From a virus (taxonomy: Duplodnaviria; Caudoviricetes), in IMG/VR virus record IMGVR_UViG_3300036798_000432, positions 1 through 58,643 of that record: a DNA stretch of 58,643 nt. One strand, written 5' to 3'. The translations under genes and the position numbers were made by a program. The notes below the pieces were generated by a model. The model searched no databases. It saw nothing but the letters and a program-made list of their open reading frames with translations, and had not been told where the DNA came from. Below, one piece after another: positions 1-58,643 of the stretch. Position 1 is the stretch's first letter; every line of letters begins with the position of its first letter.

Positions 1-152
1 CCGAGCTGACGCCGGCCTTTGCGGACGGGAATTACATCTCGAACGATTGGGGCCAGCAGTCCAATGGTCAAGGTTATCTGGAAGCCATCGCCGGGACCGG
101 AAGACCCGATCTTCAACGAAGGTCCGCGGAGCTACTCGCCACATTGGGGCCG
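1..152. repeat. Terminal direct repeat, left copy (circular contig overlap)
   Basis: 27-152 is identical to 58518-58643. 1-26 aligns to 58492-58517 with 6 mismatches, all synonymous in the spanning ORF. Confidence 0.95.
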
Positions 153-344
153 CGCGTATCTCAAGTCGAAGAAGAATTCGCCCGTACCCACGGGTGGACC
201 CCAGACCGGGCAACCCGGATCTGGGAGCAAAGTCCCCAAATCCAGCGATACGGAAACACCGTAGTGCCGGCACCGCCGCGGCCGTGGGCCGGTGGGCGGC
301 CGCCGGCGTTGGTGCCGGTCGATCACGATCCGTTCGCGCCGTGA
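3..344 (+). CDS. C-terminal part of the ~724-aa protein that starts at 56661 and crosses the contig junction
   Basis: Same frame as the ORF open at the window end (ELTPAFADGNYISNDW...). Ends PPALVPVDHDPFAP*. Confidence 0.85.
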   Translation, partial: ELTPAFADGNYISNDWGQQSNGQGYLEAIAGTGRPDLQRRSAELLATLGPRVSQVEEEFARTHGWTPDRATRIWEQSPQIQRYGNTVVPAPPRPWAGGRPPALVPVDHDPFAP

Positions 345-1257: not shown

Positions 1258-2193
1258 GTGTCTGACCAGAGGAGCAATGTCGTCGGGTTTCCAGGTGGCG
1301 GCACCGTGCCGCCGGGGCCGGCCGGTGGGCCGCCTCCGGGGGTTGGGGGAACGCCTGCCCCACCGGGAACGACCGGGCCGCCCATTCGGCCAGGTCCGCC
1401 ACCGCCGGGCCCTGGGGGGCCTGCTTCAGGGCCCGGCGGGGCATCACCAGTCCCTGGCGGTCCGGCGCCGGGGGGTGCAGCGCCCGGACCGGGGCCGGTG
1501 GCGGCGCCGGGTATGACGCTCAACCCGGCTTTTATGCAATGGCAGCAAATGAGCCAGGCCTGGCACGCCGAAAACAACCGGCGCCGCCAGCAATTCCTGC
1601 AGGCGTGTCACACCCTGCGCCACGATGTGCGGACCGGCTACAAGATCGACATCGAAGCCGATTCGACGATCGCCCCCGATGAGCAGGCGGAAAAGCAGGC
1701 ACGCACCGAATTCCTGCAGTCGATCATGCCGATGCTGCAGATGATCATCCCGGAGGTGCAGAATAATCCGCAGGTCGCCCAGCTGGCGGCGGCACTGGTG
1801 ATGTTCGGGGTGCGGGCGTTCCCGGCGGCGCGCGGGCTCGAGGACACGTTTCTCCAGGCCTTTGCCGCGCTGGCGCAGGCGCCGCCGCAGCCCAATCAGG
1901 GGCAGGGCAAAGGCAACACCAAGTCGCCGATGGAGATCATGACCGAGGCGAAGACCGCGCAGGGTGATCAGCAGATCGATGCCGCAAAGGTCCAGGCTGA
2001 TCAGCAGAAAAACTCGATCGAGTTGATGAAGGCCTACATCGCGGCCCAGGGCGATCGGGCGAAATTGGCGCAGGAAGGCCAGCTCCGCGCCGCCGAGCTC
2101 GCGCAGCAGGGTCAGGAGATCCAGGACCGGTCGGCGCTCGAAGCGGCGCGGACCAGCCATTTGATGGCTCGCGACACCGCCGGATTGGTTTAA
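1258..2193 (+). CDS. Portal protein, C-terminal fragment (split portal, part 2)
   Basis: After a Pro/Gly tract, YKIDIEADSTIAPDEQAEKQARTEFL...FGVRAFPAARGLE and a Gln-rich coiled coil match the crown/barrel end of P22-like podophage portals. GTG start with AGAAGGG SD. An in-frame TAG lies at 1252. Confidence 0.8.
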   Translation: MSDQRSNVVGFPGGGTVPPGPAGGPPPGVGGTPAPPGTTGPPIRPGPPPPGPGGPASGPGGASPVPGGPAPGGAAPGPGPVAAPGMTLNPAFMQWQQMSQAWHAENNRRRQQFLQACHTLRHDVRTGYKIDIEADSTIAPDEQAEKQARTEFLQSIMPMLQMIIPEVQNNPQVAQLAAALVMFGVRAFPAARGLEDTFLQAFAALAQAPPQPNQGQGKGNTKSPMEIMTEAKTAQGDQQIDAAKVQADQQKNSIELMKAYIAAQGDRAKLAQEGQLRAAELAQQGQEIQDRSALEAARTSHLMARDTAGLV

Positions 2194-14258: not shown

Positions 14259-14455
14259 GCCGAACGGCGCGGGGTATCCTGGCCGAGGCGGTGCGCTGGT
14301 ACGAGAACGCCGCCTTTGTCTTCAAGACCGCCGGCATGGAGCCGAAAGAGCCTCCGGCTTGGGTTGTCGCTGCCCGAAAAGTGGGGGTGCCAAATGACGA
14401 TTGTAGCCTATCGCGAGGGAGTGCTGGCGACCGACAGCCAGGCGACCAATCATGA
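14255..14455 (+). CDS. Hypothetical protein
   Basis: GTGA overlap with the upstream stop; also overlaps the next gene. Confidence 0.4.
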   Translation: MSRTARGILAEAVRWYENAAFVFKTAGMEPKEPPAWVVAARKVGVPNDDCSLSRGSAGDRQPGDQS

Positions 14456-14870
14456 CGGGGTGATCTCCGGCTCGGTGCGCAAGATCTGGGTGCGCATGGA
14501 TGGTGCGCTGTGCAGTGCGGCCGGCGGCACCGGCGATATGGGCAGCTTTGCCGCCTGGTTTCTCGCGGACAGCAAAGAACAAGGGCGCTGGCGCGGACGC
14601 AGTAAAGAGCACGGGTTTTCCGGGATCATCGTCGAACCCGACGGTCAGGTCACCCTCTACGACATCGACGGGCAGCCCTATCGCATGGATGCGCCGTTTT
14701 ATGCCCGCGGGGTCGGGTCGGAGCTGGCGATCGGTGCGATGGCGATGGGGGCGACGGCAGAGCAGGCGGTCGAGATCGCTTGCCGCTATTCGACCTATTG
14801 CGGCGGCCCGGTGCAGGTCGAGCGCCTGCCGCCGCAGGCCTGTCTCGATACCCGGCGCGGAGACAAGTGA
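14394..14870 (+). CDS. Ntn-hydrolase, proteasome-beta/HslV-like protein
   Basis: M-T-IVAY...LATDSQAT (N-terminal Thr nucleophile), RKI, GVGSELAIGAM..GATAEQAVEIA...GG. Confidence 0.8.
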   Translation: MTIVAYREGVLATDSQATNHDGVISGSVRKIWVRMDGALCSAAGGTGDMGSFAAWFLADSKEQGRWRGRSKEHGFSGIIVEPDGQVTLYDIDGQPYRMDAPFYARGVGSELAIGAMAMGATAEQAVEIACRYSTYCGGPVQVERLPPQACLDTRRGDK

Positions 14871-20630: not shown

Positions 20631-23282
20631 GTGCCTGAGGCAGCAACCAGCGACGACGTCCTCGATCAAATCGCCAGCGGCGCGATGACCGTCGCGCCGC
20701 CGGCGCAGGCGCACGCTTCGCTCGGCACCGTGATCCCCTATCAGCCAACGGACGACTTCACCGCGACGACCGGGATCACGCCCGATCAATACGACATCTT
20801 TCGCGGCTATTTGGCCAAGCGCGAAAGCCAGAGCTATGGCGAGCCGCCGCACGGCACCGGCAGTGCCACGACCCCGACGGTCAGCGGCCGCTATCAGATG
20901 GGGCCCGGCGAGATCACCGCCGCCTCGGCCCGGCTCGGTATCCCCAACCCGACGACCGACCAGTTCCTCGCCGACCCGGAATTGCAAGAGCGGCTATTCG
21001 AGAACTACACGCTCGACCACCACAACCAGCTGATGCACAACCCGCAGTATGCCAATGGCGACGCCAACACCCGGATGGCTTTGCTCGCCGGCGCTCATCT
21101 CGGCGGTCCCGGGGCGATTAGCGCGTGGCAGCGCGGACAAGACCGTTACGATCTGCTGCCGTCGGGGAAGCCCGGCACCCATGTCAGCAATTACATCAAC
21201 GGCATGTATGGCGCACTGACCGGCGAGGCCGGTGGGGTCCAGCCGGGCGGGGTGCAGCTCGCCTCGGCGACCGGACCGGCGCCGCCGGGAGCGCCGCCGA
21301 CGGCGGCTTCGTTTGGTGGCGCTGATCCGCTCGAGGCGATTGCCAGTGGGCAGGCCTATGTCGGCTTGCCGGCCGGGATGACGGCAGACAAGGCGTTGCC
21401 GTCGATGGTGACTTCGGATCCTGAGACGCTCGGCATTCCGAAGGGAGCCGCGCCGCTGCTCGACCAGCAGCAATTGATGCGGAAAGCCCAGGGGCTGGCT
21501 CTCGCCGGGATGAACGTGCAGCCGATCATGTCGCAGATCGATCAGCTGCAGAAGGGCTACCAGCTCTATCAAATGCCCGACGGCACCACCGATTGGAAGG
21601 TCCAGCCGGGCGGCCTCGCCGATCCCAAGCGCTCCGAATACAACACGCTTCTGGCCGCACACGCACAGGCCACCGGCGAGCTCGTCACCGTCCACATCAA
21701 CACGCCCTATGGTCAGCAGGAACTGCAGGTTCCCAAGGATCAATATCTCGATTTACAGCACAAATTTCCGTCGCTGACCTTGGCTGGTGGCGCGCCCTTC
21801 CCGCAGGGAGCGACAGCGCCACCGCCGCCGACCGGAACGGTTCCGCCCGCGCCGGGCGCAACGGTTCCACCCGCACCAGGTATCGCACCGCTTGGTGCGC
21901 CGCCGGCCGCTCCTGGCGCGCCACCGGTTGCGCCGCCCGGTCCTGGTGTTGCGGGACCCGGACCTGGTGTTCCGGCACCCGGACCTGGTGTTCCGGCACC
22001 CGGACCTGGGGCGCCAAGCGCGCCGCCCGCAGATCCCTTCGCGCCGATCGTCGACCGCTCCGGGAACGAGGGTCCGGCGGTGATTTCGCCACCGGCGCCG
22101 GGCCCGGGGTTGCCGCAGGGTTATGTCGGGCAGCGCTCTCTGCCGCCGGGTGGTGAGGGCTTGGTCGAGGCGCAGATCGGCAGCGATCAAAAAAGCATCA
22201 ACGATCTGCAGGCGCAGGCGAAGGACGCGCAGCGGTTGCAGTCGACCACACAATCGGTTCTCGGTCTGCTCGACGGGGTCACGACTGGCAAGCTCGGGCC
22301 GCTTGCCGGGACAATCTCGGGTTGGCTCAAGGGGCTCGGGATGAGCGACGAAGCGGCCCAGAATTTGACTGGGACCTCAGCCCCCAATCGCGACGTCCTG
22401 ATCAAGTCGCTGTTACAGCAGGCAGCGGCACAGATGGCCGGGTCAGGGCAGGGGGTCGGTCTGTTCAATGAGTTTCTCAGCGCCTTGCCGTCGATCGAGA
22501 CCTCGAAAGACGCGATCAAGATGTTCGAGAATACGGTCAATATGCAGGCGCAGCGGACGATCGACAATCGCAATCAGGCACAAGACTACTACAACAAATC
22601 GAGCCGTGATTACCTGTCGCAGAAGACAATCGGGTACAACCCGTTGACCGCGTTCCAGACTCAGTTCGATAAGGAAAACCCCGAGACGAATTATTATCGC
22701 GCGGCGCAAATAATGAGCAGCCCGAACTTTGCCAAGGAAGGGCACCAGACCGCTGCTGATACCGGCACCACCGACCAGGTCCTAAAGCTGATCCCGCGCG
22801 GGACTACATTTATCGACGCGAACGGCGTTGCGATGCGGCGCAACGCCAAGGGGGGCATTGAGCCGGCGCCCGCGCCGAAGCCTGGTTCCGGGCCTCAGGC
22901 TGCTTCTCCGCCTGGCTCGGCGCCTGGTCCCCCTCCTGCTCCGGGTCCTGCCGCGGCACCGCCCGCGCCGGCGTCCGGCGGACCGTTGGCCGCGCCCGGA
23001 CTGCCGGGCTCTTCGGCGCCGGCCGGGCCGCCGGTGCCAGGCCTAACGCCGTCGACGATCCAGTCCCTCAGAGATTCGGGCATGACGGACGCCGATATCG
23101 CCCGCATCCAGGCCGCGCCGTCGAGTGTGCCGTCGTCGGGAACGACCCCGTCCGGCAGCCCCTATGCGACGGCGCCGATACCGCCGCCTCCGGGGGTCCC
23201 GCAAGGCTCGCGGGTGATCGGCACGCGTGGCGGCAAGCCGGTTTACCAAACCCCTGACGGCCGCCGTTTGATGGTGCAGTGA
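20631..23282 (+). CDS. Internal virion protein with lysozyme-like (transglycosylase) domain
   Basis: LAKRES...GRYQM...FLADPELQE...LLAGAHLGG. Pro-rich linkers. C-terminal GKPVYQTPDGRRLMVQ. Confidence 0.75.
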   Translation: MPEAATSDDVLDQIASGAMTVAPPAQAHASLGTVIPYQPTDDFTATTGITPDQYDIFRGYLAKRESQSYGEPPHGTGSATTPTVSGRYQMGPGEITAASARLGIPNPTTDQFLADPELQERLFENYTLDHHNQLMHNPQYANGDANTRMALLAGAHLGGPGAISAWQRGQDRYDLLPSGKPGTHVSNYINGMYGALTGEAGGVQPGGVQLASATGPAPPGAPPTAASFGGADPLEAIASGQAYVGLPAGMTADKALPSMVTSDPETLGIPKGAAPLLDQQQLMRKAQGLALAGMNVQPIMSQIDQLQKGYQLYQMPDGTTDWKVQPGGLADPKRSEYNTLLAAHAQATGELVTVHINTPYGQQELQVPKDQYLDLQHKFPSLTLAGGAPFPQGATAPPPPTGTVPPAPGATVPPAPGIAPLGAPPAAPGAPPVAPPGPGVAGPGPGVPAPGPGVPAPGPGAPSAPPADPFAPIVDRSGNEGPAVISPPAPGPGLPQGYVGQRSLPPGGEGLVEAQIGSDQKSINDLQAQAKDAQRLQSTTQSVLGLLDGVTTGKLGPLAGTISGWLKGLGMSDEAAQNLTGTSAPNRDVLIKSLLQQAAAQMAGSGQGVGLFNEFLSALPSIETSKDAIKMFENTVNMQAQRTIDNRNQAQDYYNKSSRDYLSQKTIGYNPLTAFQTQFDKENPETNYYRAAQIMSSPNFAKEGHQTAADTGTTDQVLKLIPRGTTFIDANGVAMRRNAKGGIEPAPAPKPGSGPQAASPPGSAPGPPPAPGPAAAPPAPASGGPLAAPGLPGSSAPAGPPVPGLTPSTIQSLRDSGMTDADIARIQAAPSSVPSSGTTPSGSPYATAPIPPPPGVPQGSRVIGTRGGKPVYQTPDGRRLMVQ
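21936..22009 (+). repeat. 21-bp tandem repeat (PGPGVPA), about 3.5 copies
   Basis: CCCGGACCTGGTGTTCCGGCA twice exactly, plus degenerate flanking copies. Confidence 0.9.
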
Positions 23283-23284
23283 TT

Positions 23285-24142
23285 ATGCCGATTGTTGAAC
23301 TGTCACCAGATGACCAGCTCGATACGCCGGGAGCCGCTCCGCCTCCGGCTACGCCCGCTCCTGCAGAGACGGCCGATCCCGGAATTGCCGCCTTGAGCCG
23401 GAGCGGGATACGGCCCGGTTATGGCCTCACCGACGCGGTGGCGCGCGGCTTGACTTTTGGGCTAAGCGATCCGGTCAGTGCAGCCGGTGCCGCGACCGCC
23501 GGCGGACTCCCCGGCCTCGGTGGCTGGTCCGAGCGCTATCAGCAAGCCTTGAGGCGCGAGCAGGACGCCGCCGCGCAATATCGAGCGGACTCGCCGATCC
23601 TCAGCCGAGCCGGGCCGCTGCTCGGCATGCTTGCAACCAGCGCGCCCGGTGCACTCAGCACGGCCGCGCGCGCCACGCCTAGCGTAGCGCGCCAAGTTGC
23701 TCAAGGCTTGACGTTTGGCGTTGGCACTGGGGCGGCCGAAGCGGTGCCGCAAGCGACCCAGGAACCGACCTGGGGAAGGGCCGCCACCGATGTCGGGTTG
23801 GGAGCCACTATCGGTGGCGCAGGAATGGGTGCGACAGCTCCGATCGGGGGCGTAGTGGGCGCCGGGATCCCGGCGGCGGTCAAGGCCGCGCCTCTGGCTA
23901 TCGGCGGCGCGATTGGTGAGCATTTCTTCCCAGGCATGGAGGGGCTCATCGGGTCGTTGATCGGCAAAGAGATGCTGGGCCCGGTCGCCAGAGCGGCGAC
24001 GCCGGCGGCTGAGGCGACCGGCCGATTTCTCCAAAGGTATCTGCCCGGTCCGGGTACACGCACCACGGCCGCGGTTCCGAGCTCGCTGATCCAATATCTG
24101 ATGCCGGGGCAGCCAACCGGCGGGGTGCAGCCGGCGCAATAA
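23285..24142 (+). CDS. Putative internal virion (ejection) protein
   Basis: ARGLTFGLSD motif and glycine-zipper-like hydrophobic helices. Confidence 0.7.
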   Translation: MPIVELSPDDQLDTPGAAPPPATPAPAETADPGIAALSRSGIRPGYGLTDAVARGLTFGLSDPVSAAGAATAGGLPGLGGWSERYQQALRREQDAAAQYRADSPILSRAGPLLGMLATSAPGALSTAARATPSVARQVAQGLTFGVGTGAAEAVPQATQEPTWGRAATDVGLGATIGGAGMGATAPIGGVVGAGIPAAVKAAPLAIGGAIGEHFFPGMEGLIGSLIGKEMLGPVARAATPAAEATGRFLQRYLPGPGTRTTAAVPSSLIQYLMPGQPTGGVQPAQ

Positions 24143-52191: not shown

Positions 52192-52275
52192 CAGGGTGGG
52201 GTCCCCCAGAAAAAGTTTTTGCCCGACGGGTGGGGATGCGACTCCACCCTAGACCAAACCCAGAACATCGGAAAA

Positions 52276-54483
52276 ATGATGCCGAGCTACGAGCCGCAGG
52301 GCGCGCAGCTGCGTGCCTTTTCCGCCTCCAATGCGTTTTTGCGGGCCCTGATCGGGCCGATCTACGGCGGCCGCAAAAGCTGCTGCATCAACGATATCGT
52401 TCGACGGGCGACAATCCGGCGGTGGGCGAAGCAAACCCGCTGGCGGTGGGTCGTAGTGGCGCCGATTCGCCGCGAGCTCGAGCGATTTGTGATCCCAACG
52501 ATCAAGAATTGGCTGGAAGTCGGCGAATACGACGACAAAGGGCGGCATTTCGCCCTGCATTACCGCCTCGAGGACGGGGTCCAGCGTCTGATCGAGATCG
52601 ATTTCCTCGGTATGGACGATGCGCAGGACCGAAAACGCTTCGCTGTGGCCACGGCGACGGGTGTCTGGCTCGATGATGCCCGAAATTTGAGCGAAAGCGT
52701 CCTCGAAGACGCGATGCGCATCGCCGGCACGTACCCGACACCGCTCGCCGGTGGGGCGATGTGGTCGGGGGTGATCTGCTCGTCGCGGATGCCGCCGCCT
52801 GGTCATTGGCTGGTGCGCAGGCCAGAGGACCCGGGCGATTTACAGCTGTTTCGTCAGCCTGGCGGGCGGACCGCGGAGGCCGAGAACCTGCCGGCGCTGC
52901 AGGCCAGGGGCTTCAGCTACGAGGCGTTTGCCAGCGAGCGCGACGCCGACTGGATCAGGGTCAATATCGACGGCGAGCTCGGGCAAACCGCGACCGAGGC
53001 GGCGGCCGAGGCCGAACGAGCCGCTGCCCGCCAGCAATTGACCCGTTGGGTCGGGCTGACGATGCCCGATTTGACGCCGGCACGGCATCACGAGCTGCTG
53101 ATTGCCAAGCTCGAGGCCCTGGCGCGGCGCGAAATCAAGCGTTTGATGTTCTTTTTGCCGCCTGGATCGGCCAAAAGCACCTATGGCAGCGTGCTTTTCC
53201 CCTCCTGGTACATCGGCAACCACCCGACGCACTCGGTAATCGCCGCCTCGCACTCCAAGGAGCTCGCCGAGCGGTTTGGCCGCCGGGTCCGCAACATCGT
53301 CGGTTCACCAATCTTTCGGGAAACGTTCGGGTTTGGCCTGAGCGGCGATTCGGGTGCCGCCGGGCGCTGGGAAACCGCCCGCGGGGGCGAATATTTTGCC
53401 GTCGGCGTCGACGCCTCGGTCACCGGCCGGCGCGCCCATCTCGGTATCATCGATGATCCGGTCAAAGGCCGCGCCGAGGCCGACAGTGCGACGATCCGGC
53501 AGCACGTTTGGGAGTGGTACAAGGCCGATTTCTGGACCCGGCTCGTGCCCGAGGCGACGATGCTCTACATCGGCACCCGGTGGCACGAGGATGATCTCGC
53601 CGGGCGCCTGCTCGAGGACGCCAAGGTCGGCGGCGAGCAATGGGAAGTGGTCAGTCTGCCGGCGATCGTCGAGGAGGAGGGGGATGCGCTGGGCCGGATC
53701 ATCGGCGAGCGGCTCTGGCCCGAGTGGTACACCCCGGAGATGCTGGAGGTCGCCCAGCGCGACACGCGGAACTGGTCGGCACTCTGGCAGCAGCGGCCAA
53801 TGCCGGAATCGGGCGACTATTTCCAGAATGACTGGGTGCGCTGGTATGACAGCGCCCCGCCGCGTGACCGGCTGCGCACCTATGGCGCCTCGGATTACGC
53901 GGTGAAGGCCAATGCCGGCGACTGGACGGTGCACCTGGTCGCCGGGATCGACCCCAACGATGATCTCTATCTCCTAGATCTGTGGCGCAAACAAACCGCC
54001 TCGAACGAATGGGTCGAGTCGGTTATCGATCTGATGGATCTGTGGAAAACCATCACCTGGGCCGAGGAGGCCGGGCAGATCGAGAAGGGGGTCGGGCCGT
54101 TTCTGACCAAGCGTCAGCTCGAGCGCAAGATCTACGCGGTCAGAAAGCAATACAGCTCGGCCGCGGACAAGGCGGTGCGAGCCCAGGCGATCCGCGGCCG
54201 GGTGGCGATGGGCAAGGTGTACTTGCCCAAGCGCGCGCCCTGGGCGCCGGTGCTGCTCGACGAAATGCTGCGCTTTCCGGCTGGGAAAGCAGATGACCAG
54301 GTCGACGGCCTGGCCCTTTTGGGCCGGATGCTCGACGAGATGGTGCCGGGGAGCAAACCCAAGCCGGCGGCCGAGGAGCCGCGCGGGGTTTCCGGCATGA
54401 CGCTCGACGAGCTGTGGAAGCTCGATAAGCGATATTTCAAAAATGGCCGGTTTGTCGGGGATGGTCGGCCGCTGAGGATCTGA
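52276..54483 (+). CDS. terL: Terminase large subunit with an extra, degenerate N-terminal TerL ATPase domain
   Basis: Intact unit: PPGSAKST, IIDDP, GTRWH, nuclease ASDYA / AEEA / DDQVD. Extra unit: GPIYGGRKS, GVWLDD, G.YP...GG..WSG, FRQPGG....AENL. Confidence 0.9.
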   Translation: MMPSYEPQGAQLRAFSASNAFLRALIGPIYGGRKSCCINDIVRRATIRRWAKQTRWRWVVVAPIRRELERFVIPTIKNWLEVGEYDDKGRHFALHYRLEDGVQRLIEIDFLGMDDAQDRKRFAVATATGVWLDDARNLSESVLEDAMRIAGTYPTPLAGGAMWSGVICSSRMPPPGHWLVRRPEDPGDLQLFRQPGGRTAEAENLPALQARGFSYEAFASERDADWIRVNIDGELGQTATEAAAEAERAAARQQLTRWVGLTMPDLTPARHHELLIAKLEALARREIKRLMFFLPPGSAKSTYGSVLFPSWYIGNHPTHSVIAASHSKELAERFGRRVRNIVGSPIFRETFGFGLSGDSGAAGRWETARGGEYFAVGVDASVTGRRAHLGIIDDPVKGRAEADSATIRQHVWEWYKADFWTRLVPEATMLYIGTRWHEDDLAGRLLEDAKVGGEQWEVVSLPAIVEEEGDALGRIIGERLWPEWYTPEMLEVAQRDTRNWSALWQQRPMPESGDYFQNDWVRWYDSAPPRDRLRTYGASDYAVKANAGDWTVHLVAGIDPNDDLYLLDLWRKQTASNEWVESVIDLMDLWKTITWAEEAGQIEKGVGPFLTKRQLERKIYAVRKQYSSAADKAVRAQAIRGRVAMGKVYLPKRAPWAPVLLDEMLRFPAGKADDQVDGLALLGRMLDEMVPGSKPKPAAEEPRGVSGMTLDELWKLDKRYFKNGRFVGDGRPLRI

Positions 54484-54904: not shown

Positions 54905-56647
54905 ATGGCCGATTTAGCGGTTGCCTCGACAGTTGTCGGCACGATCGAAGAGCGCAAGGACCTCGGCACCGAGCCGAATGCGATCTGGCGCTTCTGGAAC
55001 TCGCAGCTGAAGCTCGCCGAGCGAACTGATGAGGACTGGATCAAGCGGGGGCGCCAGGCAGTCGACCGGTACCGCGACGAGCGCGACCAGAACGAGGCGC
55101 GGGCCAGCAAATACAACGTCTTGTGGTCAAATGTGGAGACCCTCAAGCCGGTGCTCTACGGGCGGACGCCAGAACCGGACGTCGCCCGCCGGCACAAGGA
55201 TCAGCATGACGCAGTGGCCTCGCTGGGCGCCCAGATCCTCGAAACCGCGCTGGATTACGAGAACGATATCGAAGAATTCGACGCGGTGATGCAGCAAGTC
55301 GTCGAAGATCGGTTATTGCCCGGCCGTGGTGTCGCCAGAGTGTTCTACGAGCCGGAATTTGGCGAGGAAGAGGAAGACCAAGACGCCGAGCCCGATGAAG
55401 AGGGTAATCAGCCGACATTTCAGTCGGTGACCAATGAGAGAGCGCCGGTGCGCTATGTATTCTGGGAAGATTACCGAGAAACACCGGCCAGAACGGAAGG
55501 CGAGATCTGGTGGAAGGCCTACCGGGTATTTATGACCCGCGACGAGCTCGTCGAGCGGTTTGGCAGTGAAATCGGCAAAAAGGTGACCCTCGATTACACC
55601 CCGTCGGGGGTGCATGCGGTGGCCAGCGAGGCGCAATGGGGCCCGCTGGCGGACATGTTCAAAAAGGCGACCGTCTGGGAGATTTGGGACCGCAAACGCA
55701 AGGAAGCGGTGTGGATCGCCAAGGCCTGGTCGGACGCGCCGCTCGACAGCCAGGACGACCCTTTGGAATTGCCGGATTTTTTCCCGTCGCCGCCGGCTTT
55801 GCGGGCGACCACGACCAATGAGCAGCGGGTCTCGGTCAACGATTATGTTGAATATCAAGACCAGGCGATGGAGCTCGACACATTGACCGCGCGGATCGAC
55901 CGCCTGACCCGGGCGCTCAAGGTCTCGGGTGTCTATGCGGGCTCGGAGAAGATGACCCTGCAGCAGCTGGTCGACGATTCGAGCGAGAACAAATTGATCC
56001 CGGTCGAGGATTGGACCGGGTTTGCCGGCGACAAGGGCGGGCTCAACGGGTTGATCCAGTGGCTGCCGGTCGAGCAGATCGCTCGCGTCCTGATCCAGCT
56101 CTATGACGCCCGCGAGCGCACCCTGCGGATCATCTACCAGACGACCGGCATCGCCGACATTCTGCGCGGCGAAACCAATCCGATCGAGACGCTGGGCGCG
56201 CAGCAGCTGAAGACCCAGTTTGCGACCCGGCGCATCACCCGGGCGCAAAAGGACGTCGCCCGCTTCGCCCGCGATCTGCTGCGGCTCAAAGGGGCGGTGA
56301 TGGCGCGGCATTTTATGCCCGAGACGCTCTCGCGGATGTCCGGGCTTCCCGAACCGCTCCCGGCACTGCCGCCACCCCCGCCGATGATGATCCCGGCGCC
56401 GTCTCCTGCGGCGGCCGGTTCGGCGCTAGGCGGCCCGGCGCTACCCTCGTCGGCTCCCGTCCCGGGAGCGGTACCAGCAAGGCCCCCGGGCATGGCCCCG
56501 GGCCTTCCGCCGGGTGCTGGTGGTGCACCTGGCATCCGGCCACCCCTGGCACCGGCGGCGCCGGTGCCAGGGGCACGGCTCGCGCCCGATGGCCGCCATT
56601 ATGTGCCGGACCCGCGGCGCCCCGGCAAATACCTGATGGTGGCTTAA
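54905..56647 (+). CDS. Portal protein, N-terminal fragment (split portal, part 1)
   Basis: YNVLWSNVETLKP.LY...P.PDV.RR, DRLLPGRGVARV, VWEIWD, DPLEL..FFP.P, IYQ.TGIADILRG, ETLGAQQLK. Then Pro-rich tail and stop, lacking the IDIEADST region. Confidence 0.9.
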   Translation: MADLAVASTVVGTIEERKDLGTEPNAIWRFWNSQLKLAERTDEDWIKRGRQAVDRYRDERDQNEARASKYNVLWSNVETLKPVLYGRTPEPDVARRHKDQHDAVASLGAQILETALDYENDIEEFDAVMQQVVEDRLLPGRGVARVFYEPEFGEEEEDQDAEPDEEGNQPTFQSVTNERAPVRYVFWEDYRETPARTEGEIWWKAYRVFMTRDELVERFGSEIGKKVTLDYTPSGVHAVASEAQWGPLADMFKKATVWEIWDRKRKEAVWIAKAWSDAPLDSQDDPLELPDFFPSPPALRATTTNEQRVSVNDYVEYQDQAMELDTLTARIDRLTRALKVSGVYAGSEKMTLQQLVDDSSENKLIPVEDWTGFAGDKGGLNGLIQWLPVEQIARVLIQLYDARERTLRIIYQTTGIADILRGETNPIETLGAQQLKTQFATRRITRAQKDVARFARDLLRLKGAVMARHFMPETLSRMSGLPEPLPALPPPPPMMIPAPSPAAAGSALGGPALPSSAPVPGAVPARPPGMAPGLPPGAGGAPGIRPPLAPAAPVPGARLAPDGRHYVPDPRRPGKYLMVA

Positions 56648-56660
56648 GCCGGGAGGGCCG

Positions 56661-58643
56661 ATGTCGGAGACTCGGGTTGACCCGGACACCGGTGCCACCC
56701 TGGTGCCGGTCGATCACGACCCGTACACCGAGGCGTCGCCGCCGGGTTATTTTGACAAGATCGGTCAGGATCTCGCCGATTTCTGGCAGCAGCCGCTGGC
56801 CCACGTCAAACAGCGATTGTCCGATATCGGACAGTCGTTTAGCGATGTCGCGACCGGTGGATTGCAGCGCCAGGCCGAGCTCACCGGTGCGGACTATTCA
56901 GGCCAGCCGCTGATCGGGGTCGATCCCTCGAGCGGCGAGCTCACCGGGCGATTGCCGGCATTGGCCGAGCTGGCGCGCAGTGGCATGGCTGGGCCGGTGC
57001 CGGGTGGCGCCTTGGGTGCGGGGCCGGCGATCCTCGGACGAGCGGGCCGTGCTGCGGCCGAGGCGGGCAATCTCGACACGCCGATCAGCGACACATTGCA
57101 GGCCGGCAAGTTCGCTGATCAGCTGCGGGCCGAGCACCTGGCGCGCGACAGCGGGTTGCCGTTGAGCGGTGCCGATCAGCCGGTCAGCCCGCCGCCGCAC
57201 ATCCAGACGCCGGCCGACATGGATGGGCTGGTCAACCGTTACGCCGATCTTGCCGAAAGCGGGGCTAATGCCAAGGATTGGTACGCTCAAAGCGGACGGG
57301 CAATCCTCAACGCGGCCGGTGACCCCGAGGCCGCCGACCGTCTGGCCGCGACGTTGGCGGTATCCTCGCCACGCACTAGTGTCGCCGAGAACGCATCGCG
57401 GGCCGTCACGCTATGGAACCAGGCGATGACCAACGAGCCGGTGCTCGCGGTCGGCGGCCGCGGCGGCATGCAGATCGGTGAGCGCGCGGCACCGCTGCTC
57501 TACGAGGGCGCGCCGATGACCGGCGAGAAGACCGGACCCTTTAAGACCGCGCTGGGCTTGACCTGGGATCCCGACCCGGCCGGGCATCCCTTTGTCAACG
57601 ACATCTGGAACATGCGCGCCGCCGAATATCCGCCCGAGCTCGGCAGTGACAAAACGGCGCCCTACTACACCGGCTCGCCGACCCTTGGGCAGCACAACTT
57701 CACGAGAATTCTGGCGGACCGGGCGGCCGATGTGCTGAATTCGCGCACCGGCGAGAATTGGAGCCCGGAACAGATCCAGGCCTCGGTGTGGGCGGGCAAG
57801 AAATCGGCGGTCGAGGGCACGCCGGTCGGGGATGCGGCGTTCAATTTCGCCGACGCGCTGAAGTCCCGCTTTGGGCAGCAGAGCTGGGAGTCGGCGCCGG
57901 GCGAGACCTCCAACAACCTGCCCGAGTTTCATCAGGCCGCGGCGCCGGACCAGCAGGCCTATCACGACGCGATCCGCGGTGCGCTGGAGGACGATCAGGG
58001 GCGCGACATCATCTCGCGCCACCTGGGGCTGCTGACCGGGCCCAGCTTTGAAGGGCCGGGGGTCTTTCAAGGAGTGGTGCGGCCGGGGAGCCAGGCGCAA
58101 AGCCTGGCCGGCGCGGCGATACAGGGCGGCTATCTCGGCGGGGTCGATCAATCGACCCGCGACCTCTTCGACACCGCGGAAGCCACTCGAGGGCTGCTAT
58201 TGCGCCAGGATGCTTCGGCCTGGCACGTGCCGACCTATCGGGCTGGGCTCAAGCCGGGCGACAGCAACATGGTCGACGTCAATATCGGCCGGCCGCTCAG
58301 TGCCGAGGAGGCGCGTTCGGTGGTCGATGCGATGCAGACGGCGACCGGCAAGGACTTCTTCAGCCCGATCGCGACGCAGAACGGGTTCCGCCTGCAGAAC
58401 GTGCCCGACCAATCGGGCGTCAAGAACATAGACTTCCAAAAGTCGGTTGAAAAAGCCCTCGGAAATGCCGATTTTCAAGGGGTCGACAAGGCCGAATTGA
58501 CACCCGCCTTTGCCGATGGGAATTACATCTCGAACGATTGGGGCCAGCAGTCCAATGGTCAAGGTTATCTGGAAGCCATCGCCGGGACCGGAAGACCCGA
58601 TCTTCAACGAAGGTCCGCGGAGCTACTCGCCACATTGGGGCCG
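56661..58643 (+). CDS. Large cargo protein (continues to 344) with an HhH-glycosylase-like/DUF7178-like domain
   Basis: GGAGG SD. No stop through the window end in my translation. WY...LAVSSPRTSV.EN...GEKT.PF...VNDIW...EQIQASVW. Starts ...LVPVDHDPY. Confidence 0.75.
   Translation, partial: MSETRVDPDTGATLVPVDHDPYTEASPPGYFDKIGQDLADFWQQPLAHVKQRLSDIGQSFSDVATGGLQRQAELTGADYSGQPLIGVDPSSGELTGRLPALAELARSGMAGPVPGGALGAGPAILGRAGRAAAEAGNLDTPISDTLQAGKFADQLRAEHLARDSGLPLSGADQPVSPPPHIQTPADMDGLVNRYADLAESGANAKDWYAQSGRAILNAAGDPEAADRLAATLAVSSPRTSVAENASRAVTLWNQAMTNEPVLAVGGRGGMQIGERAAPLLYEGAPMTGEKTGPFKTALGLTWDPDPAGHPFVNDIWNMRAAEYPPELGSDKTAPYYTGSPTLGQHNFTRILADRAADVLNSRTGENWSPEQIQASVWAGKKSAVEGTPVGDAAFNFADALKSRFGQQSWESAPGETSNNLPEFHQAAAPDQQAYHDAIRGALEDDQGRDIISRHLGLLTGPSFEGPGVFQGVVRPGSQAQSLAGAAIQGGYLGGVDQSTRDLFDTAEATRGLLLRQDASAWHVPTYRAGLKPGDSNMVDVNIGRPLSAEEARSVVDAMQTATGKDFFSPIATQNGFRLQNVPDQSGVKNIDFQKSVEKALGNADFQGVDKAELTPAFADGNYISNDWGQQSNGQGYLEAIAGTGRPDLQRRSAELLATLGP
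58492..58643. repeat. Terminal direct repeat, right copy
   Basis: Matches 1-152. Confidence 0.95.

Follow-up and report, generated by a model that had tools for sequence, protein, structure and literature searches.

A C-terminal hairpin on phage portal proteins and a terminal peptide on the next-encoded protein as a candidate docking pair for virion cargo

The window considered here, the whole 58,643-nucleotide stretch of viral DNA that was analysed, carries near its right-hand end part of a portal gene followed by the gene for a putative cargo protein. The two ends of the window overlap over 152 nt, where positions 1-152 repeat 58492-58643 with 6 mismatches that all fall within the first 26 nt. 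Because the contig ends overlap, the contig is circular and the cargo ORF at 56661..58643 runs on at 153-344, giving a protein of about 725 aa that wraps round the circle. The features of the locus are as follows.

54905..56647, plus strand: portal protein, N-terminal part, 580 aa, with fold region, Pro-rich linker and hairpin (phrog_12082 match)
56348..56566, plus strand: Pro/Gly/Ala-rich flexible linker, portal residues about 482-554 (translation; outside the portal profile match)
56567..56644, plus strand: C-terminal hairpin module PGARLAPDGRHYVPDPRRPGKYLMVA, proposed receptor (conservation across tails)
56661..58643, plus strand: cargo gene, first 661 codons, open at the window end (ORF list and end overlap)
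56700..56726, plus strand: putative N-terminal docking peptide LVPVDHDPY, cargo residues 14-22 (translation, homologues)
56727..57083, plus strand: low-confidence linker between peptide and folded body, cargo residues 23-141 (AlphaFold2)
57084..58643, plus strand: folded cargo body, DUF7178-like (atlas feature matches, Foldseek)
153..344, plus strand: cargo gene, last 63 codons and stop (frame 3..344)
309..335, plus strand: putative C-terminal docking peptide LVPVDHDPF, 2 residues ahead of the stop (translation, homologues)
1258..2193, plus strand: portal C-terminal part, a separate ORF of 311 aa that starts MSDQRSNVVGFPGGG and a Pro/Gly linker (phrog_12082)

Inspection of the portal ORF 54905-56647 reveals that its residues 21-481 align with positions 14-473 of the 715-position profile phrog_12082 (E 6e-139). 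This family is a Mx8-like portal protein, the N-terminal two thirds of whose profile are matched by the ORF; a Pfam search gave no match. The chain then passes through a Pro-rich linker of ~75 residues and terminates in ...PGARLAPDGRHYVPDPRRPGKYLMVA*. The distinctive portal tail described by a sequence-only reading of this DNA is therefore real, and in 7/7 close relatives it is kept, together with the peptide in the next gene, although the preceding linker has diverged. A six-frame scan of ORFs of at least 60 aa finds exactly one hairpin and exactly two peptide copies in the window.

The cargo gene starts 14 nt past the portal stop in a different reading frame. As that reading had also proposed, LVPVDHDP stands at both ends of the protein, once at residues 14-22 and once 2 residues before the stop, where the C-terminus reads ...LVPVDHDPFAP*; the two copies are identical at 24/27 nt. 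Among 19 homologues, counting the first 45 residues as the N end and the last 45 as the C end, the motif is N-terminal in 14, C-terminal in 14 and at both ends in 13. AlphaFold2 assigns pLDDT values below 50 to nearly all of residues 1-141 and mostly 80-94 to residues 142-661, and on this model residues 23-141 are probably disordered. The body matches DUF7178 clusters with an atlas feature match score of 0.90-0.92, and a Foldseek search against BFVD returns 20 matches at E<=1e-3 (best 2e-32), some of them to models named 'Large polyvalent protein associated domain-containing protein'. As modelled, the cargo body has the same fold as domains found in large phage 'polyvalent' proteins. A structure search against the PDB gave no match at E<=1e-3, and the protein has no match in Pfam or PHROG and no recognisable enzyme domain.

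Scans of IMG/VR from either side of the pair indicate that its two parts recur in adjacent genes. The hairpin-side scan yielded 100 stretches, of which 80 loci were examined, and in 80/80 the hairpin is C-terminal, at most 15 aa from the stop. A strict peptide lies at most 450 nt downstream in 51 of these 80 loci, and in a further 20 the next ORF begins with the core P[VI][DE]x[DN]PF, so that a hairpin followed by a peptide-starting gene is seen in 71/80 loci found by the hairpin alone. Three more hold a peptide variant or a copy farther away, and in the remaining 6/80 a peptide after the hairpin was not found. The peptide-side degenerate scan gave at least 135 stretches; the 80 loci examined among them contain 104 copies, almost all of which lie at one extreme end (N or C) of an ORF, and the gene upstream mostly terminates in the hairpin. 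The proposed co-occurrence in adjacent genes was thus strongly borne out from the hairpin side (71/80, and 18/18 in bacterial genomes) and from the peptide side. The hairpin profile matches 1165 clusters at 50% identity (E<=1e-3), and in 147/149 of the best of these matching clusters the hairpin is C-terminal.

The hairpin spans ~30 residues with the consensus P-x-P-G-A-[RK]-x-A-x-D-G-x-x-Y-[VIL]-P-D-P-x-R-P-G-K-Y-L-x-V, in which D, G, Y, R, G and K are invariant across 68 tails; its probable fold is a small beta-hairpin or meander. The peptide consensus is L-[VI]-P-V-[DE]-[HYF]-D-P-F-[AG]. Tagged proteins carry one to four copies of it at their extreme N-terminus and often a further copy at their extreme C-terminus; 51 complete tagged ORFs divide into 39 N-only, 2 C-only and 10 with both ends tagged. 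Conservation of both elements is far above chance. Every synonymous codon occurs at their invariant residues in loci of 35-72% GC, and pairwise codon differences are more often synonymous than non-synonymous (13909 vs 7552 for the hairpin, 5133 vs 1453 for the peptide). Judged from these codons, selection on hairpin and peptide operates at the protein level. Covariation between the two is weak: where a His precedes the invariant hairpin Tyr, 37/42 pairs have His-only peptides, compared with 19/45 where an aromatic residue stands there, a difference (Fisher p 1e-5) that is uncorrected for relatedness and confounded by shared ancestry. Some proteins carry both parts. A GNAT family has the peptide at the N-terminus and the hairpin at the C-terminus, and a single-chain AlphaFold2 model of this adaptor places strands at both termini with a pLDDT of only 57-72; in one 480-aa protein, the C-terminal order is peptide, peptide-like element, hairpin.

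Profile matches identify the hairpin carriers as portals and ejection-type internal proteins. A PHROG search of 61 distinct carriers assigned 33 to portals of three families (12 to phrog_12082, 17 to phrog_156 and 4 to phrog_1216/332) and 6 to other families that include an endolysin, a protein 'released from the phage upon host infection', an injection transglycosylase and a DarB-like protein, with 22 lacking a match. On the peptide side, Pfam matches were obtained for 23/83 tagged proteins and none for 60/83. ART-PolyVal occurs in 8 of the 83 (3 exceed Pfam's cut-off), WHH in 3 and NucA/NucB in 2, and HNH, Tox-ART-HYD1, VgrG3-like C, LPD23, GNAT, histidine phosphatase, phosphoribosyltransferase, DUF4329, DUF4951 and DUF7178 in single proteins each. 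By domain match, the recognisable payloads are of toxin, polyvalent and effector type. In the cultured cyanophage Pam5, the hairpin closes the 'tail lysozyme' ORF12 and two peptides open ORF13; Supplementary Table 2 of PMC9382816 gives both proteins the MS '+' mark. That paper equates MS-found proteins with structural proteins, and the legend of its supplement indicates that the Pam5 lysates used for MS also contained phage Pam1. The anchor in Pam5 is of ejection type rather than a portal, and the MS listing attests to virion presence, not injection.

The pair is not confined to phages. Bacterial genomes yielded 44 hairpins, 18 of phage type and 26 with a variant tail, and 43/44 have the hairpin at the C-terminus of the upstream protein. 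All 18 phage-type hairpins are followed by the peptide, and 8/8 inspected of the 26 variant tails extend aminotransferase-like sequence. At one such locus (L295), an ACP-Aminotran_3-hairpin subunit overlaps the start of a peptide-Condensation-AMP-binding-PP-binding...Thioesterase subunit. No peptide lies within 450 nt of 23/26 megasynthase-type tails. In 4/5 cyanobacterial genomes (Nostoc and three further genomes), V[DE]xDPFA has a single match in the whole genome, and that match is on the hairpin's strand, about 1.5 to 3.5 kb downstream of it and directly ahead of a condensation-domain-like N-terminus (controls 0); in the fifth genome this peptide was not found genome-wide. The megasynthase peptide sits 9-30 residues from the N-terminus, immediately ahead of the condensation domain. 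A homologous pair is thus placed at polyketide/peptide-synthetase subunit junctions, where, by analogy with such assembly lines, docking would be the expected role.

Since the two parts recur jointly in phages and in enzyme assembly lines, they probably snap together in order to load proteins into the phage head. That is to say, we consider it fairly probable, though well short of secure, that hairpin and peptide constitute a portable docking pair whose non-covalent contact keeps cargo tethered to the portal within the head. The receptor would be the hairpin, held at the very C-terminus on a flexible linker, and the ligand would be the terminal peptide of the next-encoded protein, split from its payload by a disordered linker. 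In solved portals the C-terminus faces the head interior. By analogy with those structures, rather than from this split portal, the tail is presumably directed into the head, where each of the twelve portal subunits would offer one receptor. These receptors would capture the doubly tagged, 725-aa DUF7178-like protein during procapsid assembly; it would be packaged along with the DNA and set free upon infection. We infer both the hairpin-peptide contact and the injection of the cargo; portal-held cargo would have to detach for injection, which we count against the docking reading. The modular cargo-loading tether proposed from the sequence is in this respect supported by the co-occurrence, the carriers, the payloads, the Pam5 MS listing and the homologous pair at megasynthase junctions, and its ejection-protein example is not supported. 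The last 50 residues of ejection protein 20631-23282, said to end in a 'comparable module', match the hairpin profile only over 'LMV', with an hhalign probability of 1%. Nor do this protein and the following gene hold as a second pair, as the single relative ends differently and its next gene starts MPQISPDQIEEE. The ADPFAP within the ejection protein is present but sits inside a Pro-rich run.

Several other readings account for parts of these data. One that we regard as unlikely accepts the docking and assigns it to assembly, such that the pair would attach a morphogenetic or head-internal structural protein, not an injected effector, to the portal or ejection complex; in the window's lineage it may aid assembly of the two portal pieces and their neighbours. 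The absence of a recognisable enzyme domain from the window's tagged protein, the location of the cassette within the split portal gene, the 60/83 tagged proteins that lack a Pfam match and the fact that an MS listing means virion presence, not injection, are consistent with such a role. Against it, the recognisable payloads are nucleases, ADP-ribosyltransferases, a cell-wall hydrolase and acetyltransferases, families known from injected or polymorphic effectors; the cargo body has a fold in common with polyvalent-protein domains; and the payloads are freely interchangeable, unlike structural parts. It is quite unlikely, in our estimate, that hairpin and peptide each bind a common third partner (a scaffold, the inner capsid surface or a conserved host protein) instead of one another, and that they travel jointly only through a shared address. 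Both elements are terminal on flexible linkers, as any short linear binding signal might be, and their mutual contact is a proposed one. However, the homologous pair occurs at synthetase junctions that have no phage scaffold or capsid, where both elements lie on consecutive subunits obliged to meet. Such a partner would need to be conserved from cyanobacteria to Alphaproteobacteria, Bacteroidia and candidate phyla, and the near-obligate adjacency (71/80 and 18/18) also argues against it.

A junction that serves mainly as a DNA-level recombination site round exchangeable cassettes, with the peptide copies as direct repeats devoid of a binding role, would suit the 24/27-nt identity of the window's two copies, the widely differing payloads found past the same junction and the landing of a cassette within the portal gene. 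We hold this to be highly improbable given that all synonymous codons occur at invariant residues in loci of 35-72% GC, that most tagged proteins are single-ended (39 N-only and 2 C-only, against 10 with both, n=51) and that the pair occurs at megasynthase junctions too. Least credible of all is that the peptide is a processing site at which a head protease trims or activates the protein, comparable to the removal of targeting peptides by the T4 prohead protease. The terminal position of the peptide and an HslV-like peptidase gene at 14316-14870 within the window's structural module would fit, but such a site leaves the obligatory hairpin on the preceding protein and the tandem copies unexplained, and the peptide also occurs on synthetase subunits of genomes in which a phage protease would not be expected.

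To our knowledge, how tailed phages choose the proteins that are packed and injected has been worked out in just a few model phages. In phage T4, an N-terminal capsid targeting sequence on the otherwise unrelated proteins IPI-III and Alt directs them to the head and to injection, acting through the scaffolding core and being cut off by the prohead protease. The present peptide is likewise a short N-terminal element common to unrelated tagged proteins. In contrast to T4, the proposed receptor is a dedicated module on a portal or ejection protein, and the peptide also occurs C-terminally or in tandem. Encapsulin cargo-loading peptides bind the shell protein itself, and gp7 of SPP1 is a MuF-family protein bound to the portal; we know of no LVPVDHDP-type peptide in SPP1 gp7. 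As in these two systems, a terminal peptide or small protein would tie cargo inside an HK97-fold shell or to the portal. MuF toxins are reportedly the subject of work by Jamet and colleagues in 2017. Polyvalent and MuF-type effectors, in the available part of their description, are covalently fused to a portal or MuF domain (Iyer et al. 2017, PMC5512222). Measured against that part, the tagged proteins resemble them in their ART-PolyVal and LPD domains, nucleases and lysozymes, in genes that adjoin the portal gene and in the proposed fate of packing in the head and injection. They differ from such fusions in that anchor and cargo are separate genes (a stop follows the hairpin in 80/80 loci), and since the two are separate and joined non-covalently if at all, several cargoes and chains are allowed.

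The closest parallel lies in the SLiM-betaHD class of NRPS and PKS-NRPS systems, where, according to the portion of the review PMC9113145 available to us, a short disordered peptide at the C-terminus of the upstream subunit docks on a small beta-hairpin element at the N-terminus of the next one. The same combination of a portable peptide and a portable hairpin is present here, with a homologous pair at an aminotransferase-to-condensation-domain junction. In contrast, the polarity relative to that portion's account is reversed, with the hairpin C-terminal on the upstream protein and the peptide N-terminal on the downstream one (80/80; 43/44), and the receptor of ~30 residues is far smaller than the N-terminal alpha-beta-beta-alpha-alpha betaHD domain described there. 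The megasynthase peptide lies directly before the condensation domain and therefore leaves no room for a betaHD domain. That same portion of the review lists no such docking class and makes no mention of phage virion use, and the term 'aminotransferase' is absent from the review as a whole, which suggests that the PKS-to-NRPS pair belongs to a docking-domain class absent from this 2021 survey as far as its available text extends.

A docking pair of this kind would supply a searchable sequence rule, with the receptor on a portal or ejection protein (1165 clusters carry it) and the peptide on the cargo. Many 'hypothetical' phage proteins could then be annotated as virion-delivered effectors such as nucleases, ADP-ribosyltransferases and probable counter-defence factors, and the peptide becomes a small candidate tag for loading proteins into phage heads. 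A bolder proposal, which we hold tentatively and with doubt slightly outweighing belief, is that a single hairpin of ~30 residues and a single peptide of 9 make up a universal snap-fastener which evolution has moved between natural-product assembly lines and phage particles, and which in phages holds exchangeable and chainable injected effectors. The twelve portal tails, or ejection proteins, would be the points of attachment, adaptors bearing both peptide and hairpin would lengthen the chain, and tandem-hairpin anchors would add sites. Were this true, the peptide on any protein would lead to its loading into such a phage head, and the pair would be able to rewire synthetase subunits. The pair joins two fields normally without exchange, those of phage particles and synthetase assembly lines.

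The portal gene is itself split in the window. The C-terminal third of the portal is absent from the 580-aa polypeptide and is encoded ~3.2 kb downstream on the circle by ORF 1258-2193, which covers positions 526-703 of the 715 in phrog_12082 (E 1e-20). Over its residues 115-213, this ORF shows 43% identity to residues 486-585 of a 708-aa portal that is not split (E 2e-19), and it is conserved at three other loci (L001, L002 and L004). Hairpin-bearing phrog_12082 portals stop at profile position 473 or 474 in 12/12 cases. The hairpin/cargo cassette interrupts the portal gene, and a cassette of this type would appear able to enter an essential structural gene in a lineage that survives.

Inspection of the window reveals a circular phage contig of ~58.5 kb and 64.6% GC, whose ends overlap: positions 1-152 match 58492-58643 except at 6 sites, all within the first 26 nt. 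These differences lie at synonymous positions and suggest that the assembly draws on a population with two variants. The portal is encoded in two pieces, by ORFs that cover separate parts of the phrog_12082 profile, and the features around the split are as follows.

52219-54483: large terminase
54905-56647: portal, N-terminal part, 580 aa; phrog_12082, residues 21-481 against profile positions 14-473 of 715, E 6e-139
56661 to the window end, resuming at 153-344: cargo gene
1258-2193: second portal piece, phrog_12082 profile positions 526-703

Residue 481 of the first portal piece is followed by a ~75-residue Pro-rich stretch and then by the C-terminal hairpin module (the tail), which ends in PGARLAPDGRHYVPDPRRPGKYLMVA. 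Between the two portal ORFs lie the hairpin, the cargo and a further two small genes; the second piece opens with a conserved start, MS[DE]QR[SN]NVVGFPGGG, and a Pro/Gly linker. The cargo gene starts 14 bases past the portal stop behind a GGGAGG ribosome-binding site; its residues 14-22 read LVPVDHDPY, its C-terminus ends in LVPVDHDPFAP, and the two copies of this peptide share 24 of their 27 nt. Scanned in all six frames (ORFs of at least 60 aa), the entire window contains exactly one hairpin and two copies of the peptide, both in the cargo, so the coordinates and letters that the sequence-only reading gave for this pair are correct. On a reading of the sequence, a split intein and a frameshift signal were each rejected as the identity of the tail, as intein termini and a slippery site are absent. 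No solved structure of the module turned up when PDB sequences were searched with the hairpin profile; a 29-position partial match to the SodC-family protein 9m58 (E 3e-5) was set aside, and the rest was noise.

Two further genes of this contig were noted. At 426-650, past the cargo gene and ahead of the second portal piece, lies the gene for a 74-aa protein that contains an Acb2/Tad1 hairpin domain (PF24729, E 1e-8), from a family of anti-CBASS/Thoeris nucleotide sponges; in two relatives (L002 and L004) this interval is too short for it. Within the structural module, an HslV/proteasome-like peptidase gene at 14316-14870 (phrog_1040, E 3e-33; Pfam Proteasome, E 2e-5) overlaps the start of an SU10-adaptor-like gene and may serve as a protease in head or tail maturation.

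Comparison with relatives separates the tail from the portal proper. Scanning IMG/VR with the portal gave 10 loci, where the seven close portals (68-90% identity) all keep the tail nearly letter for letter behind an altered linker, and the three distant portals (37-42%) are long and unsplit, with neither tail nor cargo gene. Alignments to the named relatives (Mx8, Mx9 and Brucella phages) end before the tail, as do those of Pseudomonas phage TL and a Bradyrhizobium phage to another hairpin-bearing portal; the records of these last two hold neither tail nor cargo. These two named phages have related portals without either element, which makes the tail an add-on. The cargo has 19 database homologues, at identities down to 43%, with the peptide in the first 45 residues of 14, in the last 45 of 14 and at both ends of 13; the four most distant have it at neither end. 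In one close relative, a 59-kb contig (L196), ~720 nt lie between the portal hairpin and the cargo start, and therefore an insertion separates them.

Since the cargo gene wraps round the contig end, it was analyzed as 661-aa and 113-aa pieces together with full-length homologues. AlphaFold2 modeled the cargo from an 18-row alignment at a mean pLDDT of 72.5, where residues 1-141 are of low confidence, consistent with disorder, and the body (residues 142-661) is well folded. A Foldseek search with the body gave no PDB match at E<=1e-3 and 20 BFVD matches at that threshold (best 2e-32), these being large proteins from uncultured phages, several of them named polyvalent-protein-associated. The protein atlas points to a DUF7178-like body, and a tblastn search with the cargo found no match in 50,697 phage records.

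The adjacent-gene co-occurrence proposed by the sequence-only reading as a check is borne out across IMG/VR. A hairpin-side scan (pattern Y-x-P-D-P-x-R-P-G-K-Y) gave 100 stretches, and in all 80 that were fetched the hairpin lies within 15 residues of the stop. The strict peptide follows within 450 nt downstream in 51 of the 80, a core form, P[VI][DE]x[DN]PF, stands at the start of the next ORF in 20 more, and 3 have a variant or more distant peptide; none was found in the remaining 6. From the peptide side, L[IV]P[IV]D[HY]DPF, written as a fully degenerate pattern, matched at least 135 stretches. The 80 fetched hold 104 copies, almost all right behind a start codon, often as 2-4 in tandem, or a few residues from a stop, and in most cases the preceding gene has this hairpin at its end. 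Searched against 1.84 billion representative proteins, the hairpin profile matched 1165 clusters at E<=1e-3 (464 at E<=1e-10), and in 147 of the 149 best that were re-read the module ends no more than 15 residues short of the C-terminus. Two or three hairpins stand in tandem in three of these 149. Small database proteins of 67-219 aa (P0027-P0030) consist of two or three tandem modules and little else, and could be multivalent hubs.

Codon usage bears on the level at which the pair is conserved. Invariant residues use all of their synonymous codons, pairwise codon differences are mostly synonymous (13909 versus 7552 non-synonymous in the hairpin core; 5133 versus 1453 in the peptide core), and the loci compared span 35-72% GC. 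Judged from these codons, selection is on the protein, and a nucleic-acid signal is therefore unlikely.

The 61 distinct hairpin carriers, that is, proteins ending in the hairpin, comprise 33 portals, 6 proteins that match other families and 22 without a match. The portals divide into 12 of phrog_12082, all of which stop at profile position 473 or 474, 17 P22-like (phrog_156) and 4 SU10-like (phrog_1216/332). The families matched by the six non-portal carriers include endolysin, proteins described as 'released from the phage upon host infection', tail injection transglycosylase and DarB-like or minor head protein. Peptide-bearing proteins matched Pfam in 23 of 83 cases, with payloads of ART-PolyVal (8, of which 3 are above Pfam's cut-off), WHH (3), NucA/NucB (2) and one each of HNH, Tox-ART-HYD1, VgrG3-like C, LPD23, GNAT, histidine phosphatase, phosphoribosyltransferase, DUF4329, DUF4951 and DUF7178. 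In 51 complete tagged ORFs the peptide is at the N end only in 39, at the C end only in 2 and at both in 10. Some proteins combine both elements as adaptors: a GNAT family has an N-end peptide and a C-end hairpin, and a 480-aa protein carries, in C-terminal order, a peptide, a peptide-like element and a hairpin, with a next gene that is peptide-first too.

A second pair had been proposed at the ejection protein (20631-23282), and here the evidence points the other way. The protein does terminate in GGKPVYQTPDGRRLMVQ; its likeness to the hairpin does not hold, as a profile built from 68 hairpins aligns to it over 'LMV' alone (hhalign probability 1%), which removes the claim of a comparable module. 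ADPFAP is indeed present, but within a Pro-rich run. The sole retrievable relative (70% identity) likewise fails to reproduce the pair, ending in GKPVYMAPDGSYHVSP ahead of a gene that starts MPQISPDQIEEE. The gene after the ejection protein (23279-24142) matches phrog_5880 (E 9e-9), as does one hairpin-bearing non-portal carrier (L155, E 5e-25).

The pair extends, unexpectedly, from phage particles to biosynthetic assembly lines. Bacterial genomes gave 44 matches to the hairpin pattern, of which 18 are phage-type hairpins, all 18 with the peptide in the next gene, and 26, mostly in cyanobacteria, are a variant tail containing PGAKLGRDPQGNPSWYIPDPERPGKYLQV; all eight variant tails read extend an aminotransferase-like sequence. 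One fully read bacterial contig (L295) has the order A-PCP, KS-AT, a 714-aa ACP-Aminotran_3 protein with a hairpin end, and a 1944-aa protein whose start the former overlaps; this start includes SVPVNYDPFADG directly ahead of Condensation-AMP-binding-PP-binding...Thioesterase. In Nostoc carneum, a PKS subunit that ends in the hairpin comes first, then an ORF whose sequence reads like a membrane acyltransferase and then an NRPS beginning with TAVEFDPFAEGEL. Four of five cyanobacterial genomes contain the pattern V[DE]xDPFA exactly once, downstream of the hairpin by ~1.5 to 3.5 kb, on the same strand and just ahead of a condensation-domain-like N-terminus; reversed-pattern controls gave none. 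Puwainaphycin-type lipopeptide clusters (L295, 4242-12213; L299/L300, Nostoc genome G001) have homologues of both hairpin and peptide at the junction from aminotransferase to condensation domain.

In solved portals the C-terminus faces the head interior, and because of this the twelve flexible tails, each ending in a receptor, could fish for peptide-tagged proteins during procapsid assembly. A bivalent cargo with the peptide at both ends, as in the window, could bridge two portal tails, and docking of moderate affinity, the strength described for megasynthase docking domains, would let the cargo go at ejection; with an ejection-protein anchor, the cargo could leave together with it. We consider this docking and loading, whose steps are inferred, the probable account. 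Most of the weight outside it falls on two alternatives, of which a docked protein with a role in assembly only is unlikely, and a third partner common to hairpin and peptide slightly more so. Docking domains act at the ends of consecutive megasynthase subunits, according to the accessible part of a review (PMC9113145), and this is the strongest argument that the hairpin meets the peptide, as against a phage-specific third party. No class in that part of the review has the present arrangement: in its beta-hairpin docking class the polarity is reversed and the N-terminal receptor domain much larger, and the word 'aminotransferase' is absent from the review. In cultured cyanophage Pam5 (ON014757), ORF12, a 735-aa 'tail lysozyme', ends in APDGNTYVPDPNRPGKYLMVQP and ORF13 (692 aa) opens with two copies of the peptide. 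Both are marked '+' for 'identified by mass spectrometry' in Supplementary Table 2 of PMC9382816, where the accessible text terms proteins so marked structural in figure legends and the lysates behind the listing also contained phage Pam1.

Related known kinds are targeting peptides, docking domains and portal-linked effectors. The accessible part of Iyer et al. 2017 (PMC5512222) describes effectors covalently fused to portal or MuF domains, in contrast to the non-covalent pair proposed here. A literature search with the letters of peptide and hairpin, with subscription journals and bioRxiv supplements outside its scope, returned no relevant paper, and none was listed for virion-packaged effectors with portal motifs.

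Complex prediction with the 45-residue portal tail and the first 45 cargo residues, run without controls, scored 0.23 and 0.22 against a mark of 0.32, which weighs neither way on binding. Single-chain AlphaFold2 of the GNAT adaptor places both termini as strands at pLDDT 57-72, using an alignment from which peptide rows were left out because MAFFT set them on hairpin columns. Covariation links the residue before the invariant hairpin Tyr to the fourth peptide residue, where His-only peptides accompany a hairpin His in 37 of 42 pairs versus an aromatic residue in 19 of 45 (Fisher p 1e-5, with kinship ignored).
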